This document shows, in pieces, positions 4,792 to 44,093 of a DNA stretch of 64,000 nt. Below the pieces are notes generated by a model. The model was not told the origin of the DNA and ran no database searches. It worked only from the letters and a program-made list of their open reading frames with translations. Numbering within the stretch: the first letter of the stretch is position 1; each line of letters begins with the position of its first letter. The position numbers and the translations under genes were made by a program. This DNA is from an uncultured Pseudomonadales bacterium (GTDB lineage Bacteria; Pseudomonadota; Gammaproteobacteria; Pseudomonadales; Cellvibrionaceae): positions 22,180 to 86,179 of the forward strand of contig CANKXO010000007.1 of assembly GCA_947487765.1 (NCBI GenBank), written 5' to 3'.

Positions 4792-4846
4792 TTTCAGGGA
4801 AATTGCCGAGATTGTAGAAAGGAGCTTTTATAGACCTAAATGTTAT

Positions 4847-24356: not shown

Positions 24357-25265
24357 ATGAAAGAAATTAATGAGAAGCGAGTCGCTTATCTTTACGAAGC
24401 CGTGACAATGGGGACTATTCGTGCCGCAGCAGATAAGCTAAATGTTGCGCCTTCAGCTGTCAGTCGTCAAATAACATTATTGGAAGAAGAGCTCGCCAGT
24501 ACCTTGATTGAGCGTCACCGTAAGGGTGTCACAGCAACGGAGGCGGGTGAAGTCATTTTACGTTTTTATCGCGAAGCACTTTCCAGCGAAGAAACCTGCA
24601 TTTCTAAACTACAAGCATTACAAGGCCTGCAAAGCGGTCACATTAAATTAGCGATAGGCGAAGGCTTTGTGGGTGATTTAATGTCGGGCCCTCTACCTGA
24701 ATTTTCTCGACGGTATCCCTCGCTAACCTTATCGATTAGTATGGCGGGATCGAATGAAGTGATCCGCAAAGTAGAAGAGGATGAAGCTCATATCGGTTTA
24801 TTGTTTCATCCTGCATCACATCCGAATATTCGTTCTCAAGTTATCAGCTCTCAACCCATTTGTGCGATTGTCTCTCCAGAGCATGTATTGGCAAATAGGG
24901 CTAGTGCAATTACATTGGAAGAGCTGCTGGAATATCCCGTTGCATTACTCGAATCTCAATATGGTGTACGGCAATTACTAGGCATGGCCGAATTTAAGGA
25001 ACGTATTCGTTTCCGACCAATAGTAACTTCAGATTCAATTGCTGTTTTAAAATTTTTTGTGCGTTCTAATATGGGATTCGCCTTTCTTCCTGAATTTGTG
25101 GTGGCAAAAGAAATTGAAGATCAACAGTTAGTTGCAATTAAAATAGATCAAGAAATATTGGCTGGTGGCGAGGCGCATATGATTACTCGTTTAGGTCGTC
25201 AGCTTTCGGAAGGGCCACATTGTTTATTAGAGCATTTGAGAGCTTGGATGAAGGCATTTAGTTGA
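24357..25265 (+). CDS. LysR family transcriptional regulator
   Basis: An N-terminal wHTH (...GTIRAAADKLNVAPSAVSRQITLLEEEL...) is followed by a LysR substrate-binding domain. 302 aa. Confidence 0.9.
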   Translation: MKEINEKRVAYLYEAVTMGTIRAAADKLNVAPSAVSRQITLLEEELASTLIERHRKGVTATEAGEVILRFYREALSSEETCISKLQALQGLQSGHIKLAIGEGFVGDLMSGPLPEFSRRYPSLTLSISMAGSNEVIRKVEEDEAHIGLLFHPASHPNIRSQVISSQPICAIVSPEHVLANRASAITLEELLEYPVALLESQYGVRQLLGMAEFKERIRFRPIVTSDSIAVLKFFVRSNMGFAFLPEFVVAKEIEDQQLVAIKIDQEILAGGEAHMITRLGRQLSEGPHCLLEHLRAWMKAFS

Positions 25266-25518
25266 GGCTTTCAAAAATATATCGCTATATTTTGTATAAA
25301 TAATAAAAATAAGCTTGAAATTTATCGTTACAAGCCTAGAATGCACATCAAATTAATTAATGCAGAGACTTTATCTTTGAAGCATTTACTCATATTTACA
25401 AATTACAGCATCGCTTCTGGGGCCGATAGTGCCCAAGAGATACGCTGTGCGTCAATATAACCTGTCTAAGTAAATATAGCTGGCAGGTTTAGCCTTCCAG
25501 TTTTAAAAAGTTATTAAA

Positions 25519-25553
25519 AACCCGGAAGGCATAACTGCTTTTCGGGTTTTTTT
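25519..25553 (+). terminator. Terminator-like hairpin + T7 run (copy 1 of a repeated module)
   Basis: AACCCG (25519-25524) pairs with CGGGTT (25543-25548), followed by a run of 7 T. The string CGGGTTTTTTTATGCCC recurs at 26150-26166. Confidence 0.55.
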
Positions 25554-26128
25554 ATGCCCGAGTTTTAAAAGTAAATGATGAGAGTAATTAGAACTTTGCT
25601 CTTATAAAGTTGTTGGTAGTTGCAATTTTGACAAATGCATAAAAATAGGAGAGTTATTATTGAAAGTTAATCAGAGGCTTAGATCGTTTATTTATAGATG
25701 AATAGTGTCATTCCACGAGTAGGGAAAATTTATTTTACAGATAAGTTTTCCTCGCTAAATTATTGTCGAATTTTTGTGAATATAGCCGCAATGGCATCGC
25801 TCGCCTATTGATTGCTAATACAATATAACTTATTGATATATAGATATTATTTCAAAAAATACTATGCCTTGTTTTAATTTTTATTACGGGCTATTGTTTA
25901 AAAAGATTTACGAAACAACACATCCAAGTGTTAACAAAAAAGAGATTTAACCATGAACCGATTACTCGGAATAAATAACCATCATACAGCTTCAGAGTGG
26001 CCATTAAAGAGTCAGCTGCTGCCGTTTAGTAATTGTTATCGTCAAAATCAAGGCGATATGAGTTTAGAGATGTAATTTGCACTTTCCTTACCGGAAGGCT
26101 GCAAGGCCAACCGGATACGTTTTTTTGA

Positions 26129-26160
26129 AACCCGATTGGCTTTGCTTATCGGGTTTTTTT
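26129..26160 (+). terminator. Terminator-like hairpin + T7 run (copy 2)
   Basis: AACCCGAT (26129-26136) pairs with ATCGGGTT (26148-26155), followed by a run of 7 T. Confidence 0.55.
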
Positions 26161-26193
26161 ATGCCCTTCATGGATGAAGGGTACATCGAAAAT

Positions 26194-26243
26194 GCAGGTC
26201 GGCTTTTGCTCCTGCAAAACCGACATTCACGCCATCCATGGCG
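26194..26243 (+). repeat. Conserved ~50-nt two-hairpin module, copy A (loops GCTCCTGC and ATCCAT)
   Basis: GCAGGTCGGCTTTTGCTCCTGCAAAACCGACATTCACGCCATCCATGGCG aligns with 27383-27429. Shared blocks are GCAGGT, GCTCCTGCAAAACC, CATTC and CCATCCATGG. The stems differ but stay paired. Confidence 0.7.
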
Positions 26244-26498
26244 CTTGAGCAATTTTTTGAGTGCCCAAAGATGGAAGATGAACCCATAACGCTCGAGAAC
26301 CTTTCGAGTATTAAAGGATTAATTTTACATGGCAGTATTTTAGGAAGTTACTCCACAAGGATGTTTTTTAATAGTGCAATGCCCACTTACACGGCATTAG
26401 TTTTTTAACAATTTGGTCGCTTTTTCCGGCATATAAGAAAGGTAAATACATTCTCGGTAATCTCGATGAGTCGTATTTTTTACTTATATGCCAAGTAT

Positions 26499-26653
26499 GC
26501 CCCTATCGTCTAGTTGGATAGGACGCTGGGTTTTCAATTCAGTAACGTCGGTTCGCCGCAAGCGGACCGGTCCAAAGTTATAAACTTTGGCCGTTCAAGA
26601 AACGCAAAGCATGCTTTGCTTAACATGTTTCTTTCACCCATCTAGGGGCACCA
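26499..26653 (+). tRNA. tRNA-Glu(UUC)-like gene interrupted by an ~85-nt structured insert in or after the T arm
   Basis: The 5' part is canonical: GCCCCTA-TC-GTCT-AGTTGGATA-GGAC-G-CTGGG-TTTTCAA-TTCAG-TAAC-GTCGG-TTCG. The 3' end TAGGGGC-A-CCA pairs perfectly with the 5' acceptor strand. The intervening sequence forms hairpins CCGC/GCGG, CCAAAGTT/AACTTTGG, and AAGAAAC..GCAAAGC/GCTTTGC..GTTTCTT. Confidence 0.6.
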
Positions 26654-26663
26654 ATAATTTGTT

Positions 26664-26740
26664 ACGTCGATAGCTTAACTGGCAAAAGCTCTGGCCTCCA
26701 AAACCAGGCGATGTAGGTTCGAACCCTACTCGGCGTGCCA
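26664..26740 (+). tRNA. tRNA-Trp (anticodon CCA)
   Basis: Hand-folded cloverleaf. Acceptor ACGTCGA/TCGGCGT, D stem GCTT/AAGC, anticodon loop CTCCAAA, T arm GTAGG-TTCGAAC-CCTAC, then G-CCA encoded. Confidence 0.85.
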
Positions 26741-26749
26741 AACATAAAT

Positions 26750-26909
26750 GCAGTGATAGCCCCAATAGATCGGCAGATTTTTGTTTCATTGAAGATCAGG
26801 AGAGTGCTGGTTCGACAGCTTTGTAGGAGCAAAAGTTGGACGCTTGTATAGGCGGTCGAGAAGCGATTATGCACAAGGATGTGTATAACAATTCCGGCTC
26901 ACTGCACCA
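26750..26909 (+). tRNA. tRNA-like gene, anticodon undetermined, with a ~72-nt four-hairpin insert in the T loop
   Basis: The acceptor GCAGTGA/TCACTGC is perfect, followed by A-CCA. T stem GCTGG (26806-26810)/CCGGC (26894-26898), with TTCGA then the insert from 26816. The anticodon arm is a 7-bp stem (GATTTTT/GAAGATC) with an 8-nt loop GTTTCATT. Confidence 0.55.
26819..26888 (+). repeat. Four-hairpin insert module, copy 1 (inside the T loop of the 26750 gene)
   Basis: P1 CTTT-GTAGGAGC-AAAG; P2 CGCTT-GTAT-AGGCG; P3 GTCG-AGAAG-CGAT; P4 TATGCACA-AGGA-TGTGTATA. Order and spacing match 29484-29551, with compensatory stem changes. Confidence 0.75.
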
Positions 26910-26916
26910 GTTTTAT

Positions 26917-26993
26917 TTCGGTGTGAAGCAGAGTGGTAATGCGCCTGACTGTTAATCAGGAGTTCGTTGGTTCGACCCTAGCCGCCGGAGCCA
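26917..26993 (+). tRNA. tRNA-Asn (anticodon GUU)
   Basis: Acceptor TTCGGTG/CGCCGGA (with G-U pairs), anticodon arm CCTGA-CTGTTAA-TCAGG, T arm GTTGG-TTCGACC-CTAGC, then G-CCA. Confidence 0.8.
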
Positions 26994-27001
26994 ATTTTAT
27001 T

Positions 27002-27083
27002 GAGGGTGTTGAGCAGGTGGTGAGCTCAGCGGACTGTAAATTCGCCGGAAACTATGTAGGTTCGATTCCTTCCACCCTCACCA
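27002..27083 (+). tRNA. tRNA-Tyr (anticodon GUA)
   Basis: Acceptor GAGGGTG/CACCCTC, D stem GAGC/GCTC, anticodon arm GCGGA-CTGTAAA-TTCGC, a 10-nt variable region, T loop TTCGATT, then A-CCA. Confidence 0.85.
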
Positions 27084-27090
27084 AATTTCC

Positions 27091-27168
27091 GGGCCAATAG
27101 CATAATCGGTAAATGCCCCGGCCTCATAAGCCGGAGAAGGAGCGGTTCGAATCCGCCTTGGCCTACCA
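27091..27168 (+). tRNA. tRNA with CAU anticodon (elongator Met or lysidine-dependent Ile2)
   Basis: Acceptor GGGCCAA/TTGGCCT, D stem GCAT/ATGC, anticodon arm CCGGC-CTCATAA-GCCGG, T loop TTCGAAT, then A-CCA. Confidence 0.8.
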
Positions 27169-27186
27169 ATTAAATGATTAGTTAAT

Positions 27187-27261
27187 AGCGGTGTTGAGCA
27201 ATGGCTGCTTTCGGGTTTCATATGCCCGAGCTTGTTGGTTCGATTCCAACCACCGCAACCA
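27187..27261 (+). tRNA. tRNA with CAU anticodon, initiator-like features
   Basis: Positions 1-72 are unpaired (A.A) above the 6-bp stem GCGGTG/CACCGC. The 3' end CACCGCAACCA resembles the fMet end CCCCGCAACCA. The anticodon stem CGGGT/GCCCG carries three consecutive G-C pairs, and the loop is TTCATAT. Confidence 0.75.
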
Positions 27262-27265
27262 AATT

Positions 27266-27356
27266 GGAAGTGTGGCCGAGTGGTAAGGCAGCGGATTGCT
27301 AATCCGTACAGTGATAAATCGTTGCTGCATGAGTTCGAATCTCATCACTTCCTCCA
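27266..27356 (+). tRNA. tRNA-Ser (anticodon GCU), type II
   Basis: Acceptor GGAAGTG/CACTTCC, anticodon arm GCGGA-TTGCTAA-TCCGT, a long variable arm, T arm ATGAG-TTCGAAT-CTCAT, then T-CCA. Confidence 0.85.
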
Positions 27357-27382
27357 AAATACTCCGGTGATGCAATTGGAAG

Positions 27383-27483
27383 GCAGGTTAAGGCTCCTGC
27401 AAAACCTGCATTCCCACCATCCATGGTGGTCACATAGCCCACTTAAAATCGGTTTGTTGCGAGTTCGACTCTCGCCGTCTGCA
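27383..27483 (+). tRNA. tRNA-like gene (anticodon loop CTTAAAA = UAA, Leu-type) carrying the two-hairpin module in its 5' (D-arm) region
   Basis: The T arm GCGAG-TTCGACT-CTCGC is canonical. The 3' acceptor strand CGTCTGC-A pairs with GCAGGT at 27383. The anticodon arm is GCCCA-CTTAAAA-TCGGT (4 of 5 bp), and there is no encoded CCA (TCA instead). An alternative outer pairing is TGATGCA (27368-27374)/TGCATCA (27480-27486). Confidence 0.4.
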
Positions 27484-27492
27484 TCAGTTTTT

Positions 27493-27565
27493 CGTGAGGT
27501 AATTCAATTAGCAGAATGCGATTTTCATAAAATCGGCGATAGTGGTGCAAGTCCACTCTTCACGA
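27493..27565 (+). tRNA. tRNA with CAU anticodon, non-consensus T loop
   Basis: Acceptor CGTGAGG/CTTCACG, D stem ATTC/GAAT, anticodon arm CGATT-TTCATAA-AATCG. The T arm AGTGG-TGCAAGT-CCACT has G instead of T at position 55. The 3' end is A-CCG, so CCA is incomplete. Confidence 0.7.
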
Positions 27566-27574
27566 CCGGTTAAT

Positions 27575-27648
27575 AGCAGCGTGGTGTAACGGTAACACAC
27601 CGGACTTTGACTTCGGTATTTCAGGTTCGAATCCTGGCGCTGTTGCCA
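27575..27648 (+). tRNA. tRNA-Gln (anticodon UUG)
   Basis: Acceptor AGCAGCG/CGCTGTT, D stem GTGT/ACAC, anticodon arm CCGGA-CTTTGAC-TTCGG, T arm TCAGG-TTCGAAT-CCTGG, then G-CCA. Confidence 0.85.
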
Positions 27649-27688
27649 AATAGTATGTTGAGTAGGGTTCTAAAAATATTTAATTTTT

Positions 27689-27763
27689 GTGCGAGTGGCA
27701 GAATGATGATGCGCGGAACTGCAACTTCCGTTTACGCCGGTTTGATTCCGGCCTCGCACTCCA
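27689..27763 (+). tRNA. tRNA-Cys (anticodon GCA)
   Basis: Acceptor GTGCGAG/CTCGCAC, anticodon arm CGGAA-CTGCAAC-TTCCG. The T arm GCCGG-TTTGATT-CCGGC has T rather than C at position 56. Ends T-CCA. Confidence 0.8.
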
Positions 27764-27769
27764 AATTTT

Positions 27770-27914
27770 CTGGATATAGCACAGCCTAGTAGCGTGTTGG
27801 GTTTAACTAAAATACATCCAAGTATTTTGCCCTTCGGGTTCTTCGAAGTTCAAAACGTTCCAGACGTTTTGTGGAGCTCAAAGTTTGTGGGTTCAAACCC
27901 TGCTATCCAGACCA
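27770..27914 (+). tRNA. tRNA-like gene, anticodon undetermined, with ~70 extra nt between the anticodon region and the T arm
   Basis: The acceptor CTGGATA/TATCCAG is perfect, followed by A-CCA. D stem GCAC/GTGT and T arm GTGGG-TTCAAAC-CCTGC are present. The interior holds hairpins AAAACGT-TCCAG-ACGTTTT and TTTG-TGGAGCT-CAAA, the latter resembling the GYAGGAGC hairpin. Confidence 0.5.
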
Positions 27915-27926
27915 ATTAATTTAAAC

Positions 27927-28000
27927 GCGGTGTTGACCGAATGGTTAGGTACCTGCCTTCCAAGCAGAGGAAATGGGTTCGATTCCCATACACCGCTCCA
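27927..28000 (+). tRNA. tRNA-Gly (anticodon UCC)
   Basis: Acceptor GCGGTGT/ACACCGC, anticodon stem CTGC/GCAG with loop CTTCCAA, T arm ATGGG-TTCGATT-CCCAT, then T-CCA. Confidence 0.85.
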
Positions 28001-28008
28001 AAATTTAA

Positions 28009-28082
28009 TGAAGGTTGGCTTAGTGGCTGAGCACCGGACTTTTAATCCGGCTAGATGGGTTCGATCCCCATACCTTCAACCA
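28009..28082 (+). tRNA. tRNA-Lys (anticodon UUU)
   Basis: Acceptor TGAAGGT/ACCTTCA, D stem GCTT/GAGC, anticodon arm CCGGA-CTTTTAA-TCCGG, T arm ATGGG-TTCGATC-CCCAT, then A-CCA. Confidence 0.88.
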
Positions 28083-28115
28083 ATTACAATAAAACAACTA
28101 AAAGGAGATCGTATT

Positions 28116-29312
28116 ATGGCGATTAAAAAAGTATTGGCGCCGCATAAAGATCAGCGGTTGCCTGTAAAAATTTGGACGGATGATATTGATTACAGCACGC
28201 AGGCTCAGTTGAGTCGTGTAGCGAACTTACCATTCGTTTATAAGCATGTAGCAGCGATGCCTGATGTACATCTCGGAAAAGGCGCCACTGTTGGTTCAGT
28301 GATTGCAACCGATAAAGCTATTATCCCTGCAGCTGTGGGTGTGGATATTGGATGTGGAATGAATGCAGTGAGATTATCTATTAAAGCAAAAGATTTGCCT
28401 GATAGCCTAAAATTGATTCGAAACGGAATTGAATCAGTTGTACCTTTAGGTCCCGGAGGTCAACATCGTGACCCCAAAATTGCTGGTGGTCATGATATAT
28501 CAATGCGTCTATGTACTATTTTTGAAAAACACCCGAAGTTAAGTAAGCGCGTTAAAGTGAATGGGTTTGCGAAACAATTAGGAACGCTGGGCTCAGGAAA
28601 TCATTTCATTGAATTATGTTTAGATGAAAATGATGACGTGTGGATTATGTTGCATTCAGGGAGTCGTGGAGTTGGCAATAAAATCGGTATGTACTTTATC
28701 GAAATTGCTAAACGAGAAATGGAAAAATGGATGATTCACTTACCTGATAAAGACTTGGCTTATCTATCTGAAGGGTCAGAATATTATGATGACTATATTG
28801 AAGCAGTTTCTTGGGGGCAAGATTATGCGGCATTGAATCGCACGCATATGATGAATGCAGTAATGCTAGAACTACGTAAGTATTTACCTGCGTTTACAAT
28901 CACACAAGAGGCTATCAATTGCCACCATAATTATGTTGAAAAGGAAAATCATTACGGCAAAAACGTATGGGTAACGCGTAAAGGCGCAATCCGTGCGAGA
29001 AAGGATGATCTTGGTATTATTCCCGGGTCCATGGGTGATAAAAGTTTTATTGTTCGTGGTAAAGGTGAATCTGAATCATTTTGTTCTTGTTCCCATGGTG
29101 CGGGTCGACGATTGAGTCGTACTGCAGCTGCAAAAACTTTTTCCGTTGCTGATCTCGTATCAGCTACTGAAGGAATAGAATGTCGTAAAGACAGGGGTGT
29201 CATTGATGAAATTCCAATGGCATATAAGCCTATCGATAGCGTGATGGATAACCAAACTGATCTAGTGGATATAGTTCATACACTTCGACAAGTCGTCAAT
29301 GTAAAAGGCTAG
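28116..29312 (+). CDS. rtcB: RNA-splicing ligase RtcB (copy 1)
   Basis: The start was moved to the ATG at 28116, which has the RBS AAGGAG 8 nt upstream. The track ORF start at 27885 runs through three tRNA genes. RtcB motifs are present: GVDIGCGMN, GSGNHFIE, HSGSRGVGN, CHHNY, PGSMGDKS, SCSHGAGR. Confidence 0.93.
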   Translation: MAIKKVLAPHKDQRLPVKIWTDDIDYSTQAQLSRVANLPFVYKHVAAMPDVHLGKGATVGSVIATDKAIIPAAVGVDIGCGMNAVRLSIKAKDLPDSLKLIRNGIESVVPLGPGGQHRDPKIAGGHDISMRLCTIFEKHPKLSKRVKVNGFAKQLGTLGSGNHFIELCLDENDDVWIMLHSGSRGVGNKIGMYFIEIAKREMEKWMIHLPDKDLAYLSEGSEYYDDYIEAVSWGQDYAALNRTHMMNAVMLELRKYLPAFTITQEAINCHHNYVEKENHYGKNVWVTRKGAIRARKDDLGIIPGSMGDKSFIVRGKGESESFCSCSHGAGRRLSRTAAAKTFSVADLVSATEGIECRKDRGVIDEIPMAYKPIDSVMDNQTDLVDIVHTLRQVVNVKG

Positions 29313-29358
29313 AAAGGACTTAGCCTTTTCTTTCACCTCTTTCCTCATTTTTAATTTA

Positions 29359-29432
29359 GCCCAATTGGCATAGTGGTCGTGCAGCTGCTTTGTAAGCAGC
29401 AGAGACAGGTTCAATTCCTGTATTGGGCTCCA
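29359..29432 (+). tRNA. tRNA-Thr (anticodon UGU)
   Basis: Acceptor GCCCAAT/ATTGGGC, D stem GCAT/GTGC, anticodon arm GCTGC-TTTGTAA-GCAGC, T arm ACAGG-TTCAATT-CCTGT, then T-CCA. Confidence 0.85.
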
Positions 29433-29441
29433 GTTTACATC

Positions 29442-29593
29442 GCCTGATTAGTTCAATTGGACTTAGAGCATCCGCCTACGACAATTTTGCAGGAGCAAAA
29501 ATTGGGCGTCTATAGAGGCGATCGTGAAACGATAATGTGCAGGACGCATATTACAAACGGGAAGATGCGGGTTCGAATCCTATTCAGGTGCCA
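29442..29593 (+). tRNA. tRNA-Arg(ACG)-like gene with the four-hairpin insert in the anticodon loop
   Basis: The 5' half is canonical: GCCTGAT-TA-GTTC-AATTGGACTTA-GAGC-A-TCCGC-CTACGA. The insert follows from about 29482. The 3' part GCGGG-TTCGAAT-CCTAT-TCAGGTG-CCA has a weak T stem, and no clean 3' anticodon-stem strand was found. Confidence 0.45.
29484..29551 (+). repeat. Four-hairpin insert module, copy 2 (inside the anticodon loop of the 29442 gene)
   Basis: P1 ATTTT-GCAGGAGC-AAAAT; P2 CGTCT-ATAG-AGGCG; P3 ATCG-TGAAA-CGAT; P4 ATGTGC-AGGAC-GCATAT. Collinear with 26819-26888. Confidence 0.75.
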
Positions 29594-29601
29594 AATTTAT
29601 T

Positions 29602-29678
29602 ACTCTCGTAGCTTAATTGGATAGAGCGTCTGTCTTCGAAACAGAACGGTGTTGGTTTGATTCCAACCGAGAGTGCCA
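29602..29678 (+). tRNA. tRNA-Arg (anticodon UCG)
   Basis: Acceptor ACTCTCG/CGAGAGT, D stem GCTT/GAGC, anticodon arm TCTGT-CTTCGAA-ACAGA, T arm GTTGG-TTTGATT-CCAAC (T at position 56), then G-CCA. Confidence 0.82.
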
Positions 29679-29917
29679 ATAATTATTATTAATAAACCCG
29701 AGAATCTTTAGGTGTGGCCGTGGCAGATTGATAAATTTACCGGGAGTAAATTTAGACGCGGGAGAGAAGCGACGGCGCCCGTAGGGGTTGTAACATGGAT
29801 GTTACAAACCAATGTGCGCTTAACTTTGGCTTAAGTGCCCTTGGTTTTTGGAAAGGGGAGTTCAGGTCGCATCGGTCACCCCTAAAGGTTTTTACTAATA
29901 GAAAAGGAGGTCAAGCA

Positions 29918-30211
29918 ATGAGACTTGCTATAACGCGATCAGGTTTTTATAACGCTGATCTTTATTGCGCTGATACTCGTACAGCTAAAAGAGTGTTGCG
30001 TGAAAAAAATATTTCCATATTGGCTATCGACTATTATCTAGTTGGCCAGGGAAATGGTTGCGATATTATTGATTGGGCTAAAAGAAATGCAGTTTTGCCT
30101 AATTTTATCGTTGTTATTGAACGTAATCGCAACAAACGAGCCTTATTATCGAATACATTACGAAATATAGGTTATCGCTCTGGTGATGATACTACCTTTA
30201 TAAGGCATTAA
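29918..30211 (+). CDS. Small receiver-fold-like protein, possibly a degenerate 'cyclic-phosphate processing receiver' (cREC)-type domain
   Basis: The start was moved to the ATG at 29918, which has a strong RBS AAGGAGG. The upstream part of track ORF 29795.. overlaps a structured RNA region. The 97-aa protein contains ...ILAIDYYLVGQGNGCDIIDWAK...PNFIVVIERNRNKRA... This resembles from memory the hhhDhDLG...G.dhh.Wh...hhhHS.N layout of small REC-like proteins that accompany RtcB, but the catalytic-type residues are replaced. Confidence 0.45.
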   Translation: MRLAITRSGFYNADLYCADTRTAKRVLREKNISILAIDYYLVGQGNGCDIIDWAKRNAVLPNFIVVIERNRNKRALLSNTLRNIGYRSGDDTTFIRH

Positions 30212-30250
30212 ATTTAGTTAAAGCGACCACTATGATTAATTGAGAATAGG

Positions 30251-30814
30251 ATGATGAATATTCAAATTTTGCAGCTATCGAAGTCAGGTCACCCAATGTC
30301 TTGGGTGAACCGTGAAGAAGCCGCAACACTGTATGCAAAAAATAGGGTGTTATGGGAGCTGGGTGACGAAGTTATTCCAATTGTCGGCGGTATTAATCGC
30401 TTGGGCATTCAAAGTCGCTTCGATATGGCACCAATTATTGCTTGTGATGGTGATGTGAAACAACCTCGTTTACGACCATCGTTAAGTAATCGTATGCTGT
30501 TTCGCCGAGACGATTACCGATGCTTGTATTGTGGTGTTCAGTTTAATCACGACGGATTAACGCGGGACCATATTGTGCCGCGTATTCAAGGTGGTTTAGA
30601 TCGTTGGGAAAATGTGGTTGCTGCTTGTAAACGCTGTAATCACAGTAAGGGTGGTCGAACGCCAGAGCAGGCAGGGATCAAGCTATTGGCCATTCCATTT
30701 GTGCCGAATCCGTTTGAGTTTCTGTTTTTGGCAAATCGACATATTCTGGCTGACCAGATGGATTATCTTGCGACAAGCTTTTCGTCAAAGCGAGACTGGA
30801 AAAAAGTGGCTTAA
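30251..30814 (+). CDS. HNH endonuclease
   Basis: The HNH core is present: CLYCGVQFNHDGLTRDHIVPRIQGGLDRWENVVAACKRCNHSKGG. 187 aa. Two hairpins follow (30806-30826 and 30837-30862). Confidence 0.85.
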   Translation: MMNIQILQLSKSGHPMSWVNREEAATLYAKNRVLWELGDEVIPIVGGINRLGIQSRFDMAPIIACDGDVKQPRLRPSLSNRMLFRRDDYRCLYCGVQFNHDGLTRDHIVPRIQGGLDRWENVVAACKRCNHSKGGRTPEQAGIKLLAIPFVPNPFEFLFLANRHILADQMDYLATSFSSKRDWKKVA

Positions 30815-30991
30815 CTATTAAGCCACCCACATATTTGGAATACAGGTATTAACCTGTATTCCATACCGATGTTTATACGTATGTTGGCGAAACAGCGGCT
30901 CTGGTTCTGAATGCCAGGCTGGCACAGTCATGTTTTATGTCCTGTGTACCGATTCACTAACACGTTAAACAGTATGCTCTGAAAAAGCATA

Positions 30992-31064
30992 GTTTTTGTA
31001 GCTCATAGGGTAGAGCAATCGACTCATAATCGATGGGTAGCAGGTTCGATTCCTGCCTCAAACA
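30992..31064 (+). tRNA. tRNA with CAU anticodon (fourth CAU gene), weak acceptor stem, no encoded CCA
   Basis: D stem GCTC/GAGC, anticodon arm ATCGA-CTCATAA-TCGAT (perfect), T arm GCAGG-TTCGATT-CCTGC. The acceptor GTTTTTG/CTCAAAC pairs at only 5 of 7 positions. The 3' end is A-CAG. Confidence 0.65.
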
Positions 31065-31424
31065 CAGTCAGTTTTAATAAACTGAAGGAAAAGCCGAGAG
31101 GCTGAGGTTCGAATCCTCATTTGGTCTACTAAACCAAATATAAAACAAGAGGCTCATAGCAACGTAATGCTGTTATAGATTATGTTGCGTTGACATTAAT
31201 ACCGTTAATGATGGGTTAAGGTATTGCGTAGTAAATAATAAGTTTACCTCACTATCAACAGCTAAGGATGGTGTCCTAGGGATGGGGATAATCAAGAGTG
31301 ATTAGGTTAGTGTGGAGCAACCGCTGTATTTGTCTACCCATTACATTTAAGTTATTTACCGTACTCATGGCAAATGGGCCTCGCCATTATAGTCATTGGA
31401 AGAAATAAATAAGGGAGAATAATA

Positions 31425-32576
31425 ATGATTCTTTGGAAAACAATCGATATTGCGGAACATGAACGTGTATTACTTTATGTCCGTGATCAATTTAAACAAG
31501 TGCTAGGCCCAGGTCGGCATCGTGTCTCGACCTTGAAGGGAAAAGTTCGCCAGGAAACCTATGATATTACCGAAGTAGTATTCAGGCATCCTAAAGAAAA
31601 ATTTTTGCTGTCACACTACCCAGAAAAACTGGCAATGCACCTTGAGCAGTTTGACTTAAAAGATACTGAAGTGGGCTTGTTATATCGAAATGGCCATTTA
31701 ATGAATGTGTTGGCACCTGGTAGTTTATTTACAGTTTGGAAAGGTGTTGAGGATATTCGTGTTGACGTTATCGATATTAATAACCACTATCAGATAGAAG
31801 AGTCTTTAATTGGCTTATTGGGGCGAGGCATTAAAATTGGTCAAAGCCGAGAAGTCGTTAATGCGATTGCTTATGCAGAGGTAGTTGATGAGCATGTAGG
31901 TTTATTGCTGGTTAACGGTAAGCTAGAAAAGATCTTGCAACCGGGTAGTTACGGCTTCTGGAAATATAACCGTTCAATTGCGGTTAAAATGCTTGATCTT
32001 CGTTTACAAGCAATGGAGGTTAGTGGCCAAGAGATTCTGACCAAAGATCGCGTGAGTTTGCGTATTAACTTAACTGGTAGTTATAAAATTAAAGATCCTC
32101 AAATTGTTGCCTCTAAGGTGAATGATTACGCAGGTTTTATCTATCGTGAGTTGCAATTAAGTTTGCGAGAAATTGTAGGCACACAATCATTAGATGGATT
32201 GTTAGAAGATAAAGATGCTTTAAATTCTGTAATTACTCAGAGTACACGAGAAAAATTAGCGGAATACGGTATTCAGTTAATGAGTGTCGGGGTTAAAGAT
32301 ATTATTTTACCTGGTGAAATGAAGCAGATTCTGAATCGAGTAGTAGAGGCGCAAAAAGAGGCTGAAGCTAATTTGATTAAGCGTCGTGAGGAAACTCAGG
32401 CAATGCGTTCATTACATAATGCTGCCAAGATGATGGAAAACAACCCTGTGTTGTTACGTTTAAAGGAATTAGAAGCATTAGAAAGAGTGACTGGGAAAAT
32501 CGATAAGATTTCTGTCTATGGTGGCCTTGATAGTGTTCTTAATGACTTGGTAAAACTGGCGCCGGTCAAAACCTAA
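31425..32576 (+). CDS. SPFH/Band-7 (slipin-like) domain protein
   Basis: 383 aa. The C-terminal half is SPFH-like (...VSLRINLTGSYKIKDPQIVA...GIQLMSVGVKDIILPGEMKQILNRVVEAQKEAEANLIKRREE...). No clear N-terminal TM helix was seen. Confidence 0.8.
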   Translation: MILWKTIDIAEHERVLLYVRDQFKQVLGPGRHRVSTLKGKVRQETYDITEVVFRHPKEKFLLSHYPEKLAMHLEQFDLKDTEVGLLYRNGHLMNVLAPGSLFTVWKGVEDIRVDVIDINNHYQIEESLIGLLGRGIKIGQSREVVNAIAYAEVVDEHVGLLLVNGKLEKILQPGSYGFWKYNRSIAVKMLDLRLQAMEVSGQEILTKDRVSLRINLTGSYKIKDPQIVASKVNDYAGFIYRELQLSLREIVGTQSLDGLLEDKDALNSVITQSTREKLAEYGIQLMSVGVKDIILPGEMKQILNRVVEAQKEAEANLIKRREETQAMRSLHNAAKMMENNPVLLRLKELEALERVTGKIDKISVYGGLDSVLNDLVKLAPVKT

Positions 32577-32749: not shown

Positions 32750-34531
32750 CTAGCGAAAAGATACAATCAAAAATATAAGTACAGCAATTGCCGCAAAAAT
32801 CATTACGCGAGCGAAGGGTTGCATAGAATCTGTATTAGATGCATCCGATAGCCATGGTGATTGAGATTCTTTCTGTTGTTGTGACTTAGTTTCTTCCTTT
32901 TTTGTTTGTTTTTTTGCGGTCGCTATTTGTTTAAGCTCTTCTGTAGTATTCTCTTTAACAGGTGGTGCTGGTGGCTCAGCTTGCCACCAGTTTTCGCGTG
33001 GTGCTTCACCGGCAGCGGCCTTTAAGCGTAAAAGTTTATTATTTAATTTGCCAATGCGACTTGGATTAACTTGATAACTGTATTTTTGTTTTAGTTGTAC
33101 TATTTGCTTTTGTAAAGGAATGCCCTTGCTAGGGTTAACCATTGCGACAAAGTTGGCGTAACCTTCTATGGAGCACAATAAATTGCTACTGCTATTGTGA
33201 GAACGATGAGCCCAGTGCTTACCCTCTAGCCCGCTTTTGTCAATTTGATGTAGTAAGGCTCTGAAGCGCTTTAAGGTCTTGCGATCAACGCTAAGGTTAT
33301 TATTCACTACCACGCCGGTCACTTCTTGTTTTTTATGCTTGCGCATAATGCGTGTTTTTTCGGGGTGAACAATAAAACCTTCATCCTTAATAATACTATG
33401 ACAACGCCACAATAGTTTTTTTACAATGCTGTCGTCAATATTCTGTGGATTAATATCATCGCCCTTGTTGGAGCTTGCCGAAAAAGTAACATCGTCAGCA
33501 TATCGCGTATAAGTAAAGCCTAATTTTTTAGCCATCCCTTGTAAGCGAGCATCCAATTTTCTACAGATGATATTGCTAATATTAGGGCTAGTTGGCGCTC
33601 CTTGCGGTAAAAAGCGCTCTCCGTTACTAACAAACCAAGACTGACTATCTAGTTCAACCTCCTGTGTATTCGCTTCGGTGCAAAGTAAGGCTAGTACTGT
33701 TGCAATGTGTTCACTGTAACCTAGAGCTTTAAACATCCCCTTAACTCTTGGATAGCTAATTGTTGGAAAGAAGTTTTTAAGGTCGAGGTTAATAACAATA
33801 TCTTTGCCTACATGAGGCGCAGCATTGGTTACGATAGAGCGCGTGCGTACAAAGCCATGAGCGGCATCATGTAATGCCAGCGGCTCTAAAATATTGGATA
33901 AAACCCAATACTGGGCAAGTTTCAACCGTGGCATAGGGGCAGATATTAGGCGAGTTCCACCGGTTTTCTTGGTCATTTGGAAGCGTTGATAATGACTAAT
34001 CGTGCAGACATCTTTTTGGTAGACTAAAAAACGTAGCTCATTAACGGTAATGCCCATGGCTCTGGCCAACATTTGGCTGTCGTGCAGTAGTGGTAACTGT
34101 TGGGCTTGGAGTTTGTCTTCATCGCTGTTAACTTTTGATAGCCCTATCGATAAACCTTCCCCTACGAAGGTAATAAATTTCTTTTGGATGTCGTACCAAT
34201 TCTTTGCTCGTTGGTATCGTGTTTCATTGCGTTCTTTACGCTTTTCTTCTCTACGAATAAGTGCTTCTTTTTTACGCTGTTTGTGTAACTCCTTTAGTGC
34301 TTGCTCTGGGTCTTGATACAATTGCTGTTGCTTTCCTAATTCACGCAGTTGCTTTTGTAACTGCCCGCGCTTTTCAATAAAGGTTTCTGTTAGTGTTGGC
34401 TGTTCACTATTTTTTGGCCAAAACCCAAGACGTTTCATCTCTGCTAAAATATAAACTTCTTTACCACCTGTTTCGCGTACGCGCTGGTAGAGTTCTTGGC
34501 GGCTTAATTTTTTAGTGCTTTCGTCAGACAT
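32750..34531 (-). CDS. Reverse transcriptase, retron/Abi-DRT-like, with N-terminal extension and C-terminal TM anchor
   Basis: RT motifs are present: NAAPH (NAxxH), INLDLKNFFPTI, LPQGAPTSP, YTRYADDVTFS, and QEVTGVVVNN (VTG). There is a ~190-aa charged N-terminal extension, a K/E/Q-rich tail, and a terminal hydrophobic helix MIFAAIAVLIFLIVSF. The RBS GGGAGA lies upstream. Confidence 0.9.
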   Translation of the reverse strand: MSDESTKKLSRQELYQRVRETGGKEVYILAEMKRLGFWPKNSEQPTLTETFIEKRGQLQKQLRELGKQQQLYQDPEQALKELHKQRKKEALIRREEKRKERNETRYQRAKNWYDIQKKFITFVGEGLSIGLSKVNSDEDKLQAQQLPLLHDSQMLARAMGITVNELRFLVYQKDVCTISHYQRFQMTKKTGGTRLISAPMPRLKLAQYWVLSNILEPLALHDAAHGFVRTRSIVTNAAPHVGKDIVINLDLKNFFPTISYPRVKGMFKALGYSEHIATVLALLCTEANTQEVELDSQSWFVSNGERFLPQGAPTSPNISNIICRKLDARLQGMAKKLGFTYTRYADDVTFSASSNKGDDINPQNIDDSIVKKLLWRCHSIIKDEGFIVHPEKTRIMRKHKKQEVTGVVVNNNLSVDRKTLKRFRALLHQIDKSGLEGKHWAHRSHNSSSNLLCSIEGYANFVAMVNPSKGIPLQKQIVQLKQKYSYQVNPSRIGKLNNKLLRLKAAAGEAPRENWWQAEPPAPPVKENTTEELKQIATAKKQTKKEETKSQQQKESQSPWLSDASNTDSMQPFARVMIFAAIAVLIFLIVSFR

Positions 34532-34689
34532 CTGCCTGTCTCCCTAATATAAATAAGGATAAATGTTGAGTGTTAAAAAAATGGATAATGATAGTTGTTA
34601 CAAGAACAAATAAAGAAGAGAAGTGCGCAAGATAAAAGGGTGCCAGCGTGCTCAATGTTTCCTTCGTAGAGCTCTTAGTACTGGATTGA

Positions 34690-34785
34690 TCAACTCGACG
34701 CGGCACGCCCCTACTATCGCTCATTGACTTCATGGAAGTCATACCGCAATAGCGATAGTAGGGGCTGTGCCGCCCTATGAAGATC
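34690..34785 (-). ncRNA. Highly structured non-coding element immediately upstream of the RT (candidate RT template or msr-msd-like RNA)
   Basis: A 22-bp interrupted inverted repeat joins GCGGCACGCCCCTACTATCGCT (34700-34721) to AGCGATAGTAGGGGCTGTGCCGC (34751-34773). It encloses a second hairpin TGACTTC-ATG-GAAGTCA (34725-34741). It lies in the 400-nt gap between the SWIM gene and the RT. Strand and ends are not determined. Confidence 0.45.
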
Positions 34786-34931
34786 AGGCCAGTGACGCGT
34801 GTGTAGTCTATAAACCAGAACGGCGATGCACCGCTCAAATTGCAAGGTAGATAAGTCACGCTGACACCTGTGCTAGTATAGCAGTGTTGTTAGGTTTTAA
34901 AAGAGCGCTATTAAAATTCTTCATGATCTCT

Positions 34932-36572
34932 TTAACCGTTTGCTAAGGAATATTGTTTTCTGATCGCTAATATATGTTCGCATGGCCCCATGCGCAGTAA
35001 ATTCGTTCGATAAAAATAACAGTCGCAGCTAGCCTCTTTTAAACGTTGATCGCCGTCAATTTTAATCTCAGTGTTCAAATGGTGTCCGTCATCAATGACT
35101 GTTCCTTGAATTTGAGCACCTCTTTCATTTTCTAGCTTATGATGAATTGTCACCAAGTTGGCGGCCACAAATCGAGCAGACTTTTCATCGCGCTCATTAG
35201 CAAAACGCAATGAGTCCATCGGTAAAGGTTGTTGGCTAAGTTCACGGATACGATAAACACTTCCGGCTAAATCATAAAGCACTTGCCCCTGTTGGCTATA
35301 GGCAGCCAATGCAGATTTCACTACTGACTCATCTAAATGCAGTCGTCGTGCCAGTGAGTCACTGGATTCTTGCCATGTCTCTGATAGTGCTTGGTAAACA
35401 CGTTTAAGTGTTACTTCGTCAACATCACCTCTAGGCGCTAATAGATCAAAGTTACCCATTCGTGACCAATCATTTGCTGACCAGCCCGACAAACCTAAGG
35501 TAAATGTCATATCGCCTAAATCGGCAACGTAAAAACTAGGTAAGCCATTACCTAATAGATGTACCGTAAATTTTTTGGCGATAGGGATTAAACGCTCCAA
35601 TATATGCAGGCGACGGCGCCCCCATATACGAATTGATCTAGCGTCATTTCCTGTATAAATGCTTCTGGCTAATATTAATTCTGTGCCCCATGGCTCTAAG
35701 ATAATTTTAATAGGCTCATCTGATGCCAGTTCAAATCGTATTGCCCGAGGGCCTACGCGCTCTCTTTTACGCCGCAACATATAACAAATATTGTGAATAT
35801 CCATTGGGTGCAATGTTAATGTGGTCATGGGTAAGGTCATAGCTGAGCTTACCTGTAAAAAACCACGCACCCAGCTTTCAGGAAGATCAATTTTCTTTTC
35901 GTCAAATTGTTCCTCATGGCTGGTTTGCATACTGAAACCATCGGGGTCAATTGCCAATGCTGTTTGGCGATACTCTCTTATTTTTTGAAATTCGTTGTAT
36001 AAACCTTCCGAGTAATCAATATTTGTGGTGCCGTAAGAAGTATCGGTTATATTATCAAATACGTCATAGCTACAGCTAAGTTTTCCGTAACTTGATTCAT
36101 CTTCAGAAAAACATTCAAAAAAAACTTCGTCGGGATGGACGGTAATTACTGGGTCAAGTACATACCAAGCATCCATATCGGTTTTATAAAGATGTTTGAA
36201 ATATTTGTTCTGAGCTGTATAAAAAGGCCCCATTAATGCTTGGCTTTGCTTGCTAAGTTCAGATAGTTCTTTGCGCACAAGCTCAATTTCGCCTTCCACC
36301 TGTGACTTGCGACCAATAAATTCTGCCAATAGCCGCTCTTCTTCTTCAGCTAGCCAGCGCTCGTATTCGCTGCGATCTTTTGGCTGAAAGCGCATATCAG
36401 AAATCACAACATTGTGTAGTGCCGATATCGCCTCACGAAAAGCTATTTTCTGCTTAAGCTGTCCTACAAAATAAGTAGGTAGGCGCAAACTGTCAGGCAC
36501 AAAAGATACATCTGTACTCGCTGCATTGCTCGCAACATGGCTCTGCCCATGATATCGATAACGAAATTCCAT
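34932..36572 (-). CDS. SWIM zinc-finger domain protein
   Basis: 546 aa. A C-terminal SWIM CxC...CxH signature is present (ASCDCYFYRTNLLRMGPCEHILAIR). It lies directly downstream of the WGR protein on the same strand. Confidence 0.8.
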   Translation of the reverse strand: MEFRYRYHGQSHVASNAASTDVSFVPDSLRLPTYFVGQLKQKIAFREAISALHNVVISDMRFQPKDRSEYERWLAEEEERLLAEFIGRKSQVEGEIELVRKELSELSKQSQALMGPFYTAQNKYFKHLYKTDMDAWYVLDPVITVHPDEVFFECFSEDESSYGKLSCSYDVFDNITDTSYGTTNIDYSEGLYNEFQKIREYRQTALAIDPDGFSMQTSHEEQFDEKKIDLPESWVRGFLQVSSAMTLPMTTLTLHPMDIHNICYMLRRKRERVGPRAIRFELASDEPIKIILEPWGTELILARSIYTGNDARSIRIWGRRRLHILERLIPIAKKFTVHLLGNGLPSFYVADLGDMTFTLGLSGWSANDWSRMGNFDLLAPRGDVDEVTLKRVYQALSETWQESSDSLARRLHLDESVVKSALAAYSQQGQVLYDLAGSVYRIRELSQQPLPMDSLRFANERDEKSARFVAANLVTIHHKLENERGAQIQGTVIDDGHHLNTEIKIDGDQRLKEASCDCYFYRTNLLRMGPCEHILAIRKQYSLANG

Positions 36573-36643
36573 ATTTTTGCCTGAGAAATTTTTCTGAAAA
36601 TTATGAATCTAATGCGTTTTTGTATAATTTTTATATAGCGTTT

Positions 36644-39600: not shown

Positions 39601-39820
39601 TGGATACAACAACACTATCAAATAGCTTCTCTGCTTTGCTAAGCTCAACAGCTTCAGGGGTTTTAGTGCCTTCTCTTAATTGATTGCCGCGACGCCCGTA
39701 TCGAAAATTAACGAGATAACGTTCATCTTTTCGGCTTGCTAACTCACATAAATCAACTTCATAAACTTTGTCGGAATTGCCTTCCTGATACACCAATCGA
39801 GATTGCTTGATTAGTCGCAT
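36644..39820 (-). CDS. WGR-domain protein with long helical (HEAT/ARM-like) repeat region
   Basis: 1058 aa. An N-terminal WGR domain is present (LVYQEGNSDKVYEVDL...YLVNFRYGRRGNQLREGTK...AEKLFDSVVVSKVNKGYW). The remainder is leucine-rich and alpha-helical in character. Confidence 0.8.
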   Translation of the reverse strand: MRLIKQSRLVYQEGNSDKVYEVDLCELASRKDERYLVNFRYGRRGNQLREGTKTPEAVELSKAEKLFDSVVVSKVNKGYWDREQAKQSPTTTSPTLAGVPSSNLASDDFPFKLIEQILNHLPNEKETKSRSRMIWRLGELGHRDCEPIANAIVPYIKKGHWLEDYSIAWALGRMVATQHKAVLETLRQHKQAQVCHIAFESQLLISDQTSRKALLGSHWQHFPAQFKSAVMEGNSSTAHQQLGALLSHGASDNVNNTNQLLVLCYQLSLAYPILHQALLSQLAIIPLTPGYFRGIRSIYKASELRLDGSVFGLLAQRIETAPAFFRNDWDWAWLPGEGSIKPSKELKKANAKLTFSHRTRDYFRRRSWRVLRRIGQAGDLRYVDMATESLLAINDEHGSKPRTSEVYRWDNSGDNWQRQLISSNEYGPFASFLSLNHILFEHHPGYQLAPSGRVWIKSDESNTDGTSLINGSRTECFAELWDQKPSHALRLLKTSRCELVHPFARRILENQPSFCQKISPVDLALLLNSNYASTCEFALAIVRERIKQDDLSSELLIALLSSSLTEARVLGKQSLLRFKINDDISLLTSLLLILHSDVQSDIKTAVCQQKISGRNAEKLLQAIVDSIFLENSNLSEKHAEYLADFALENLNDAIKHFPLTSLQRLIHDEKVPRKILGAKLLLGHKISYGDIPDSLLQAIHDSSSAEVRGIGAALLGKQADKDLIKQLDLLVGLYCKGDTQERASLLSIFSRLMTNSQQGSEQIENTLLALTFKSEEQPGQHEELIAFFTSLAQSHLTKLDNDMLWRLLQAQSICAQRVGAITLTERNADIFSVKQWAILGQHSDVSVRQFAFQAYEKNVDEIKQYSRDALRILNSNWDDARTFGFDFFRQQYSQEDWSPEIVIFICDSIRDDVQSFGREILQSFFKAEYGPEYLLKLSQHPSNNVQLFVSSFLEEYAAGIPSHILSLQAYFTTALSQINKGRVCKDRILLFLLREAEKDISVATMVMPLLERISLTMVHKDKAALIKAMLKLQSLYPDIASPLTAKKVPIKQPASLGV

Positions 39821-41460: not shown

Positions 41461-41464
41461 TAAG

Positions 41465-42367: not shown

Positions 42368-42864
42368 GCCTTTATTTTTTAATTGAACCACTTTGTATTT
42401 GTTAACCTATAAAAATACTCATTAATATAGTTGTAGTTAATTTTTGTAAGGAAATGTTATAAAAATTATGAATAAAGATATTGATATATAATTTTAATAT
42501 GACTATAGTGCGCGCAGTTTTTACAAATCACCTTTAATCAATACTCTACAGGAGGCTCAAGTATGTTGTATCTAAATAATCAAATCGCATTGTTGGGTTT
42601 GTCTGTATCTTGTTCTTATAGCTAACATTTTTGTTAACGCTATAGCTATCTTTCAGATAAATCCTCTTAGCTAAACGTCTTAACTGTACGTTATAGGTAG
42701 TTTTGCGTAATTTTTTAAGCTAATTCTTGTTGGTCAAATTCTATCGACCATACATTTGCATTTTTTTATGCGGTTAGCGATTAATCTGTATCGCCTTTTG
42801 TTTCAACTCGAAAATATTTTTTGAGGGGGCAATGTCGTGCCTAAAAACATGAGTAGAAATTTTA

Positions 42865-44091: not shown

Positions 44092-44093
44092 AT

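Follow-up and report, generated by a model that had tools for sequence, protein, structure and literature searches.

Why does a single run of bacterial tRNA genes contain several members with irregular loops and 3' ends? We addressed this question for a tRNA-gene array of an uncultured Pseudomonadales bacterium (Cellvibrionaceae; assembly GCA_947487765.1, contig CANKXO010000007.1, positions 22,180 to 86,179), a stretch of 64,000 nucleotides (nt) that is called the window in the following. The array (about 26480-31100, + strand) is flanked by a LysR regulator gene (24357-25265) and the gene of an SPFH/Band-7 protein (31425-32576, +; Pfam Band_7, E = 9e-31), and it encloses a gene of the RNA ligase RtcB (28116-29312, +; Pfam RtcB, E = 7.5e-128). 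An earlier note, made from the letters of the DNA alone, had listed non-canonical features in several of the tRNAs and proposed that the aberrant members may serve as decoys, sensors or substrates of repair enzymes. We found that tRNA genes of this island and of related islands carry two new families of covarying hairpin inserts in their D, anticodon and T loops; a literature search retrieved no description of such inserts. We favour, with a probability of about 0.55, the explanation that these are selfish palindromic DNA inserts and that the interrupted genes decay within a mobile island of tRNA and RNA-repair genes.

For comparison, we used contigs that were retrieved via RtcB homologues in the protein database, including those labelled L089 to L097. 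L089 is the sister locus, with an RtcB that is 95% identical to that of the window and with flanking genes in common. L090 is more distant, and its RtcB is 89% identical. In the window, ARAGORN detected 14 tRNAs in the array, with concordant results from Rfam. Together with six interrupted genes, they lie within about 4.6 kb, every one of them on the + strand.

Two families of hairpin inserts

The first family, module 1, has 76 nt that form four hairpins, of which the first and the last have AGGA loops. Across seven copies, 94% of the cells hold standard pairs, and 14 of the 25 pairs have changed on both sides. This degree of pairing was equalled by none of 500 shuffles, and shifted registers were 30-50% paired. 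Module 1 is located in the T loop, between positions 58 and 59, of tRNA-Phe (window, L089 and L090), tRNA-Tyr (L090), tRNA-Leu-UAG (L091) and a tRNA-like RNA (L094). It also occurs between positions 37 and 38 of the anticodon loop of tRNA-Arg(ACG), and divergent relatives of it are present in tRNA-His. We rejected a guide-like pairing of hairpin 3 of module 1 with the target loop: it fits the tRNA-Phe gene at 26750 and the tRNA-Arg(ACG) gene at 29441, and it does not fit the other copies.

The second family, module 2, has a length of 49 nt and forms two hairpins, with UCCU and UCCA loops; 5 of its 17 pairs have changed on both sides. The first hairpins of the two modules are reverse complements of each other. 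In the arrays, module 2 is found at the 3' end of the D loop, namely in tRNA-Leu (window), tRNA-Thr and a tRNA with anticodon CAT (L094), tRNA-Ala (L096) and tRNA-Phe (L090). A further copy (26198-26246, +; 71.8 bits with R2, the covariance model of module 2) lies 5' of the array in the AGGA loop of a hairpin (…ATGCAGG^…^AGCAAT…). The counterpart of this site in L089 is uninterrupted and reads ATGCAGGAGCAAT.

Furthermore, the pattern of module 2 matched at least 120 stretches in metagenome contigs. Among the matches listed, there are 116 distinct copies, all with a length of 49 nt, which are preceded by G in 79% and followed by a purine in 96% of the cases. Some copies are in tandem (L156), others are nested in GGA-type loops of other hairpins, and there are several other contexts; none of the 83 copies in the retrieved metagenome contigs lies within a tRNA gene. 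No match to module 2 was found in viral contigs and none in plasmids. The module 1 pattern gave eight matches in viral contigs, all of them chance matches within coding sequence.

Module 2 also splits reading frames of transposases. In L119, two reading frames, of 295 and 190 codons, become one when the 49 nt are deleted, and the IS66 Pfam domain can then be aligned without a break across the junction (residues 171-446). In four other contigs (L174, L141, L116 and L153), the same deletion joins an IS91-type (Y2_Tnp) frame to a conserved C-terminal part (TWAQRLKRVF…). When 48, 49, 50 or 51 nt were deleted, the frame was continuous in 9, 10, 10 and 8 of 66 cases, respectively. A deletion of 49 nt is thus not enriched, so that only the cases backed by homology (IS66 and IS91) count. 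Comparing the contigs of the IS91 group, we found an identity of 96-100% for the element and, by eye, of about 75-80% for the flanks, which suggests recent site-specific insertion. As a separate observation, the spliced IS91-type proteins of L141, L153 and L116 contain repeated peptides such as APAHPCARGIRASLHVIA, which look like translated in-frame copies of other hairpin elements.

Interrupted and irregular members of the array

The gene at 26750 (26750-26909, +) has the acceptor strands GCAGTGA/TCACTGC, followed by ACCA, and derives from tRNA-Phe(GAA). Its T loop contains a complete module 1 (26816-26891, +; 76 nt at position 58/59, TTCGA^…^TT), which scores 91 bits with the covariance model R1. 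The earlier note had seen a 7-bp anticodon stem with an 8-nt loop and had hinted at a frameshift suppressor. The letters bear this out in so far as a helix of 26776-26782 (GATTTTT) and 26791-26797 (GAAGATC) can form around GTTTCATT (26783-26790). The 8-nt loop is real as a sequence but not a conserved tRNA feature, as the loop has 7 nt in L089 and 6 nt in L090. Neither ARAGORN, with or without introns, nor Rfam calls a tRNA here. The L089 orthologue is a tRNA-Phe(GAA) with the D stem GCTC/GAGC, the 5-bp anticodon stem CCTGA/TCAGG and the 7-nt loop CTGAAGA; it bears the same 76-nt insert at T-loop position 58/59, and ARAGORN scores it at 113 once this insert is deleted.

A base-by-base alignment of these genes reveals what happened to the anticodon arm. 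The stretch GCAGAGCGCCTGAC of L089 corresponds to ATCGGCAGATTTTTGTTTCAT in the window, where 26773-26783 reads GCAGATTTTTG, the 5'-terminal part of a module 2 copy. The tRNA-Phe of L090 has a complete 49-nt module 2 at the same spot, starting with the same GCAGATTTTTG. Deletions in the window have removed the remainder of module 2 together with one strand of each adjoining stem, 3' in the D stem and 5' in the anticodon stem. As L090 has the full element and L089 a normal loop, the apparent 7-bp stem and 8-nt loop are the stump of a module 2 copy after internal deletions.

The second example is a chimeric tRNA-Leu remnant (27361-27486, +). It is composed of the 5' part of Leu(UAA), a module 2 copy in the D loop (27383-27431, +; 49 nt, R2 71.8 bits), the anticodon and T arms of Leu(UAA) and the 3' end of Leu(CAA). 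What had been listed as a gene at 27383 is therefore not a gene: it is the 49-nt insertion element within this remnant. At the 3' end (CGTCTGC-A-TCA), a deletion fused the T arm of Leu(UAA) to the end of Leu(CAA); the two acceptor strands are mismatched, and ACCA has turned into ATCA. In L089, three intact tRNA-Leu genes occupy 5299-5543. Two of the odd tRNAs are hence artefacts of reading across inserts. Independently of the inserts, we observed that the tRNAs with Leu anticodons (UAA, UAG and CAA; L089 5299-5543, L046 and L065) have 77 nt and no long variable arm. A normal bacterial tRNA-Leu has such an arm, so the amino-acid identity of these array tRNAs is uncertain.

Four more genes are interrupted. 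The tRNA-Glu(UUC) gene (26499-26652, +) has a hairpin-rich insert of 79 nt (26556-26634) in the T loop after GGTTCG and extra changes in the T stem; it is not called by ARAGORN, and pairwise alignment places an intact tRNA-Glu in L089 (4520-4595). A tRNA-like gene at 27770-27914 (+), delimited by folding and by alignment to L089 and L090, has the acceptor strands CTGGATA/TATCCAG, followed by ACCA, and a UAA-type loop. Additional hairpins with the loops AUCCAA and UCCAG, about 70 nt in all, enlarge its anticodon/variable region, and ARAGORN does not call it either. The tRNA-Arg(ACG)-type gene (29441-29593, +) contains module 1 (29482-29556) after CTACGA, at anticodon-loop position 37/38. This 76-nt insert (R1 91 bits) is common to the window, L089 and L090, and in the window the gene has a weakened T stem. 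After its deletion, ARAGORN scores tRNA-Arg(ACG) at 112 in L089 and 110 in L090; L094 and L096 have a tRNA-Arg(ACG) without interruption. Lastly, in a tRNA-His remnant (29711-29882, +), 80 nt that resemble module 1 interrupt the D loop (29735-29814), the anticodon reads TTG in place of GTG, and the variable/T region contains a second insertion. In L089, the aligned tRNA-His(GTG) is intact (7605-7678).

The intron search of ARAGORN returned a doubtful Tyr(ATA) for the tRNA-Arg(ACG) gene and nothing for the other interrupted genes. Removing the inserts in silico does not restore the window copies: no tRNA is recovered from the Phe gene at 26750 or from the chimeric Leu, and the Arg(ACG) gene at 29441 gives a poor one. 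Where an insert is common to the three genomes (Phe, Arg-ACG and 27770), the exons around it are degenerate in one or two of them. Decay also affects uninterrupted genes; the Met gene corresponding to 27091 is degenerate in L089, where the Gln and Cys genes are also fused by a deletion. For annotation, this means that six tRNA genes of the island are missed by standard tRNA finders, and that related genomes will be affected likewise.

The remaining irregular members are uninterrupted. The tRNA with anticodon CAT at 27493-27567 (+; Rfam tRNA 48.6 bits) has, as noted earlier and confirmed by ARAGORN and Rfam, the T loop TGCAAGT with G at position 55. It also has A18 in its D loop (AATTAGCA) and ends in ACCG. 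Its orthologues in L089 and L096 have the T loop TTCAAGT, GG in the D loop and ACCA, and the orthologue in L094 contains module 2 in its D loop. G55, A18 and the CCG end are, by comparison with these orthologues, mutations derived in the window lineage. The lack of an encoded CCA is correct for three places, which read ACCG (27493), ACAG (30992) and A-TCA (27483-27486, the end of the Leu remnant); the last had been assigned to a gene at 27383 that does not exist.

tRNA-Cys and tRNA-Arg-UCG had been singled out for U in place of C56. The T loop TTTGATT is present in both according to the ARAGORN and Rfam alignments, and no alternative alignment of the T loop yields C56 in either. A broken tRNA elbow as a result of U56 is, however, not supported by our comparison. 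In tRNA-Cys(GCA) (27689-27763, +), the D loop GAATGATGA has G18 and A19, which implies a Watson-Crick pair between A19 and U56. The same combination occurs in tRNA-Cys of L096 (TTTGAGT with GAACGACGA) and in tRNA-Asp of L065, whereas tRNA-Cys of L046 and L065 has C56 with GG. tRNA-Arg(UCG) (29602-29678, +) keeps GG, which results in a G19·U56 wobble; its Rfam score of 65.5 bits is the highest of the tRNAs in the window, and the wobble is conserved in L089 (T loop TTTGACT). Among 53 array tRNAs, GG is lost in 3 of 7 with U56 compared to 2 of 46 of the others (Fisher p = 0.013, for sequences that are not phylogenetically independent). The A19-U56 and G19·U56 combinations are conserved variants that are probably tolerated and not disabling. 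The array tRNA-Cys provides a small, clean case of covariation at a tertiary pair.

The gene at 30992-31064 (+; Rfam tRNA 61 bits, 3' end ACAG) is an already described RNA, the tRNA associated with band-7 (b7a-tRNA), a non-decoding tRNA-like RNA that usually has no encoded CCA. b7a-tRNA was predicted by Burroughs and Aravind, as cited in bioRxiv 10.1101/312249, where the class is linked to RtcB repair. Homologues of the 30992 gene lie directly 5' of Band-7 in L010, L020, L023, L045, L046, L065 and L089-L097. They have conserved D and T arms and variable acceptors and anticodons (CAT, GAT, CAG, TTT and TTA), and most have no encoded CCA. As in the module of RtcB, Band-7 and b7a-tRNA outlined there, RtcB is located near Band-7 and a tRNA-like gene adjoins Band-7 directly on its 5' side, and this is seen at dozens of loci. 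In contrast to that module, RtcB and Band-7 of the window are separated by tRNA genes, a gene of a 97-aa protein and a gene of an HNH endonuclease. For the b7a-tRNA homologue of L097 (7844-7917), ARAGORN reports a four-base anticodon (atga) in an 8-nt loop; the loop size in this family is therefore not fixed. Between b7a-tRNA and the Band-7 gene there are about 360 nt of non-coding DNA (31066-31424) that are, by eye, nearly identical to L089 over most of their length and less so near the start of Band-7. Among the hairpins of this region, one is T-arm-like (GAGGTTCGAATCCTC, 31104-31118); the region may encode a second structured RNA.

Selfish DNA, introns or functional RNAs

How did the inserts and the irregular members arise? 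According to the favoured explanation, the array would be a horizontally mobile tRNA-gene island around RtcB, Band-7 and b7a-tRNA, with quick turnover. The modules would land in D, anticodon and T loops and in other GGA-containing loops, without target duplication. It would be DNA that moves, most plausibly in the form of single-stranded hairpins and with a transposase supplied in trans, of a REP or IS200/IS605-like kind. The interrupted genes would then be mostly inactive and decay. The flagged oddities would have four origins: scars of modules 1 and 2 that landed in hairpin loops, followed by deletions (26750 and 27383); window-specific point mutations in the redundant gene 27493 (G55, A18 and CCG); conserved and probably tolerated variants (A19-U56 in Cys and G19·U56 in Arg-UCG); and a non-decoding b7a-tRNA that normally has no encoded CCA (30992). 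We favour selfish DNA because the elements are widely distributed, have a uniform length, occur in nested and tandem copies and have a short target preference. Furthermore, nearly identical copies are present in diverged hosts, and the hosts of older inserts show extra damage.

The modules resemble REP/REPIN sequences and other palindromes derived from IS200/IS605 in being short, imperfect, multicopy and strand-specific, without target duplication and with a short preferred adjoining sequence, and in forming nested and tandem copies. The head sequence of the modules, G(T/C)AGGAGC, is similar to the heads of Pseudomonas REP sequences. They differ from these palindromes in that they are found inside genes and hairpin loops and not in intergenic regions, and in that their internal hairpins covary. 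No RAYT/TnpA (Y1 transposase) was detected among the reading frames of the window; the metagenome contigs and the rest of the genome were not searched for it. Rickettsia palindromic elements are likewise selfish palindromic repeats in protein-coding and RNA genes, but those elements are in frame and retained in the product, whereas the 49 nt of module 2 shift the frame. The intervening sequences of 23S rRNA are also inserted sporadically into the hairpin loops of a structural RNA; they are cut from the RNA by RNase III without re-ligation, whereas the modules are known from DNA alone.

Several observations weigh against selfish DNA. All 15 strong copies of the modules in arrays are sense-oriented (R1 and R2), and the same models detect no copies elsewhere in the 64-kb window; the target is thus more specific than a short sequence motif. 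Exact deletion in silico gives canonical tRNAs in eight genes of relatives (ARAGORN 107-118). These include the 49-nt deletions in L094 Met, L094 Thr and L096 Ala (111-118) and deletions of module 1 from Phe, Leu, Tyr and Arg genes. The tRNA-Phe of L089 is precisely without module 2, though the window and L090 have it there. It is the internal hairpins of module 1, and not its ends alone, that show the compensatory changes, and removal of module 2 restores intact IS66 and IS91 reading frames. Finally, no transposase for the modules was found by Pfam among the reading frames of the window.

Much of this evidence would also fit the alternative that the inserts are intron-like, which we consider possible but rather unlikely. 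They would be transcribed in precursor tRNAs and transposase mRNAs and excised by an endonuclease or by self-cleavage, leaving 2',3'-cyclic phosphate and 5'-OH ends, and the exons would be joined by the RtcB of the array. The interrupted Glu, Phe, Leu, Arg-ACG and His genes could then still yield working tRNAs, and these are exactly the isoacceptors that are lacking from the uninterrupted set. In the arrays, the inserts are confined to loops (the D loop before the 3' strand of its stem, 37/38 and 58/59) and to the sense strand. In addition to the canonical tRNAs after exact removal, the strong structural covariation and the precise absence of the Phe D-loop copy from L089, RtcB itself lies within the array, and 49 nt, which is not a multiple of three, split the IS66 transposase and the IS91-type frames in four contigs.

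Against introns, no EndA/Sen splicing endonuclease domain was found in the window reading frames scanned with Pfam. No bulge-helix-bulge was recognized by eye or in minimum-free-energy folds, and no dedicated search for this motif was run. An Rfam scan of 25500-32000 at E <= 5 detected no ribozyme, group I or group II intron, Y RNA or transfer-messenger RNA (tmRNA); its sub-threshold matches are a weak YrlA and Bacillaceae-1 at 27372-27429 (26.4 bits compared to a gathering threshold of 35). The 97-aa protein encoded next to RtcB has a CheY-like predicted fold and no nuclease signature. The distant RtcB arrays L046 and L065 have no copies of module 1 or module 2 (R1 and R2), so RtcB is not tied to the inserts. 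In addition, the older inserts lie in decayed exons, the window copies are broken beyond the insert, and the nearly identical module 2 copies in diverged flanks fit recent insertion of DNA.

Archaeal bulge-helix-bulge tRNA introns are spliced by proteins; some have non-canonical positions, and the cbf5 mRNA contains such introns too. Like them, the modules are short, interrupt tRNA genes at 37/38 and within D and T loops and are also found in protein-coding genes, their presence differs between relatives, and an RtcB ligase is present. In contrast to them, the modules form two fixed-length sequence families with hairpins of their own, and the window scan gave no EndA homologue. Removal of the insert results in a canonical tRNA for the eight genes of relatives but not for the Phe gene at 26750 and the Leu remnant at 27361 in the window. 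That the modules are a new kind of bacterial intron, short, mobile, built of hairpins and homing to GGA-type or tRNA loops, cut from the RNA by an endonuclease and with exons rejoined by RtcB, is doubtful. If true, bacterial RtcB would have a role in splicing as it has in archaea and animals, which would explain why RtcB is found inside arrays. The modules are either a new class of loop-specific selfish palindromic DNA or a splicing system that makes use of the long-unexplained bacterial RtcB. In both cases, they target the loops of tRNA genes without leaving a scar, and module 2 also splits transposase frames across many environmental bacteria.

We regard it as improbable that the aberrant members are kept as functional RNAs outside translation, whether they would be decoys for anticodon nucleases, sensors, or substrates or cofactors of repair enzymes. 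The 30992 gene speaks for such a role as it matches b7a-tRNA, which is a proposed cofactor of the RtcB system in bioRxiv 10.1101/312249, and as its D and T arms are conserved in spite of the varying anticodon and acceptor and the mostly missing CCA. Furthermore, PMC8421152 suggests that the operon tRNAs of cyanobacterial arrays act as sponges for toxin RNases. However, the sister island, with its 95%-identical RtcB, has neither the 8-nt loop, G55 and the CCG end nor the chimeric Leu, and such a restriction to the window is a signature of decay and not of selection; U56 is compensated or forms a wobble. Thus, the suggestion that some members are poor substrates of translation holds in that several are unlikely to work there. 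For a designed role as decoy or sensor we found nothing, and the relatives point to insertion and decay.

That the 26750 gene is a frameshift-suppressor tRNA is extremely improbable: an 8-nt loop on a 7-bp helix can be drawn at 26776-26797, but no canonical cloverleaf with such a loop on a 5-bp stem is formed or called, the anticodon arm exceeds the usual length by 5 nt, 76 extra nt lie in the T loop, the 5' strand of the supposed stem is the start of module 2, and the orthologues keep no 8-nt loop (7 nt with GAA in L089 and 6 nt in L090), which makes it a lineage-specific scar.

The island and its surroundings

The whole array behaves as a mobile, redundant island in flux. Related islands occupy differing chromosomal contexts, and the pairing of RtcB and Band-7 is found in L089-L097 and many of L001-L080. 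The best RtcB match in the genome collection has 80% identity, and the homologues in the protein database include Aurantivibrio and Simiduia. The array has no close match in phages, where only a distant similarity to RtcB was found. The window itself has a G+C content of about 0.41 and contains chromosomal genes (ribosomal proteins S11, S4 and L17, RpoA, UvrA and SSB).

Long tRNA arrays include pseudogenes among their members and have rtcB as a neighbour, according to PMC8421152. The island agrees with these arrays in its dense, co-oriented set of about 20 tRNA genes with many isoacceptors and some pseudogenes, and in its patchy, mobile distribution with rtcB and other RNA-processing genes adjoining. 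Compared to the arrays in the considered passages of that paper, the island differs in that many members hold small structured inserts, that RtcB, an HNH gene, Band-7 and b7a-tRNA are embedded, and that it resides on a gammaproteobacterial chromosome.

Two protein genes follow RtcB within the island. The first encodes the conserved 97-aa protein (29918-30211, +), which is located 3' of RtcB in most related islands. D14, C17, D19, E68, R71 and R74 are invariant in this protein, and D38 is nearly so. It has 51 relatives among 1.8 billion representative proteins and no family assignment, and its fold is predicted to be CheY-like (predicted local distance difference test, pLDDT, 91). We considered this protein as a candidate for the lacking endonuclease, which its predicted fold, without a nuclease signature or an informative match, does not support. 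The second encodes a free-standing HNH endonuclease (30251-30814, +; Pfam HNH_5 and HNH).

The CCA-adding enzyme, which the earlier note had already attributed to the island, is encoded at 40201-41460 (+), with the PolyA_pol head, RNA-binding and HD domains. It is the first gene of a second repair cluster (40201-44789) that also encodes an RlaP nucleotidyltransferase, a second, more divergent RtcB and a PrfH-like protein with an RF-1 domain. This combination matches the pairing of ribosome rescue and repair in PMC9304027. Between the Band-7 gene and that of the CCA-adding enzyme lies a type XIII retron (32750-39820, - strand) with four genes: RT_XIII (593 aa), an open reading frame of 111 aa, SWIM_XIII (546 aa) and WGR_XIII (1058 aa). 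The retron is missing from L089, which is elsewhere syntenic with the window.

On the other side of the array, most of the DNA that separates the LysR gene from the first tRNA is conserved in L089. Two nearly identical terminator-like hairpins (TGCTTxTCGGGTTTTTTTATGCCC) are located here, 5' of the array, at 25536-25559 and 26143-26166, 607 nt apart.

Other islands contain further small genes among their tRNA genes. A small gene of the alternative ribosome-rescue factor ArfA is present in L091 (5162-5302) and L096 (4641-4796), and L090 has a small open reading frame (4667-4813) that is ArfA-like by reading of the sequence and has no Pfam match. Between tRNA-Glu and tRNA-Trp, L094 (1927-2247) and L096 (4130-4355) encode an RNA of about 230-320 nt that does not occur in the window. 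It has the acceptor stem GGGCGTG/CACGTCC, followed by ACCA, a T arm and a big internal domain, and thus recalls tmRNA or Y RNA; the copy in L094 contains module 1 in its T loop.

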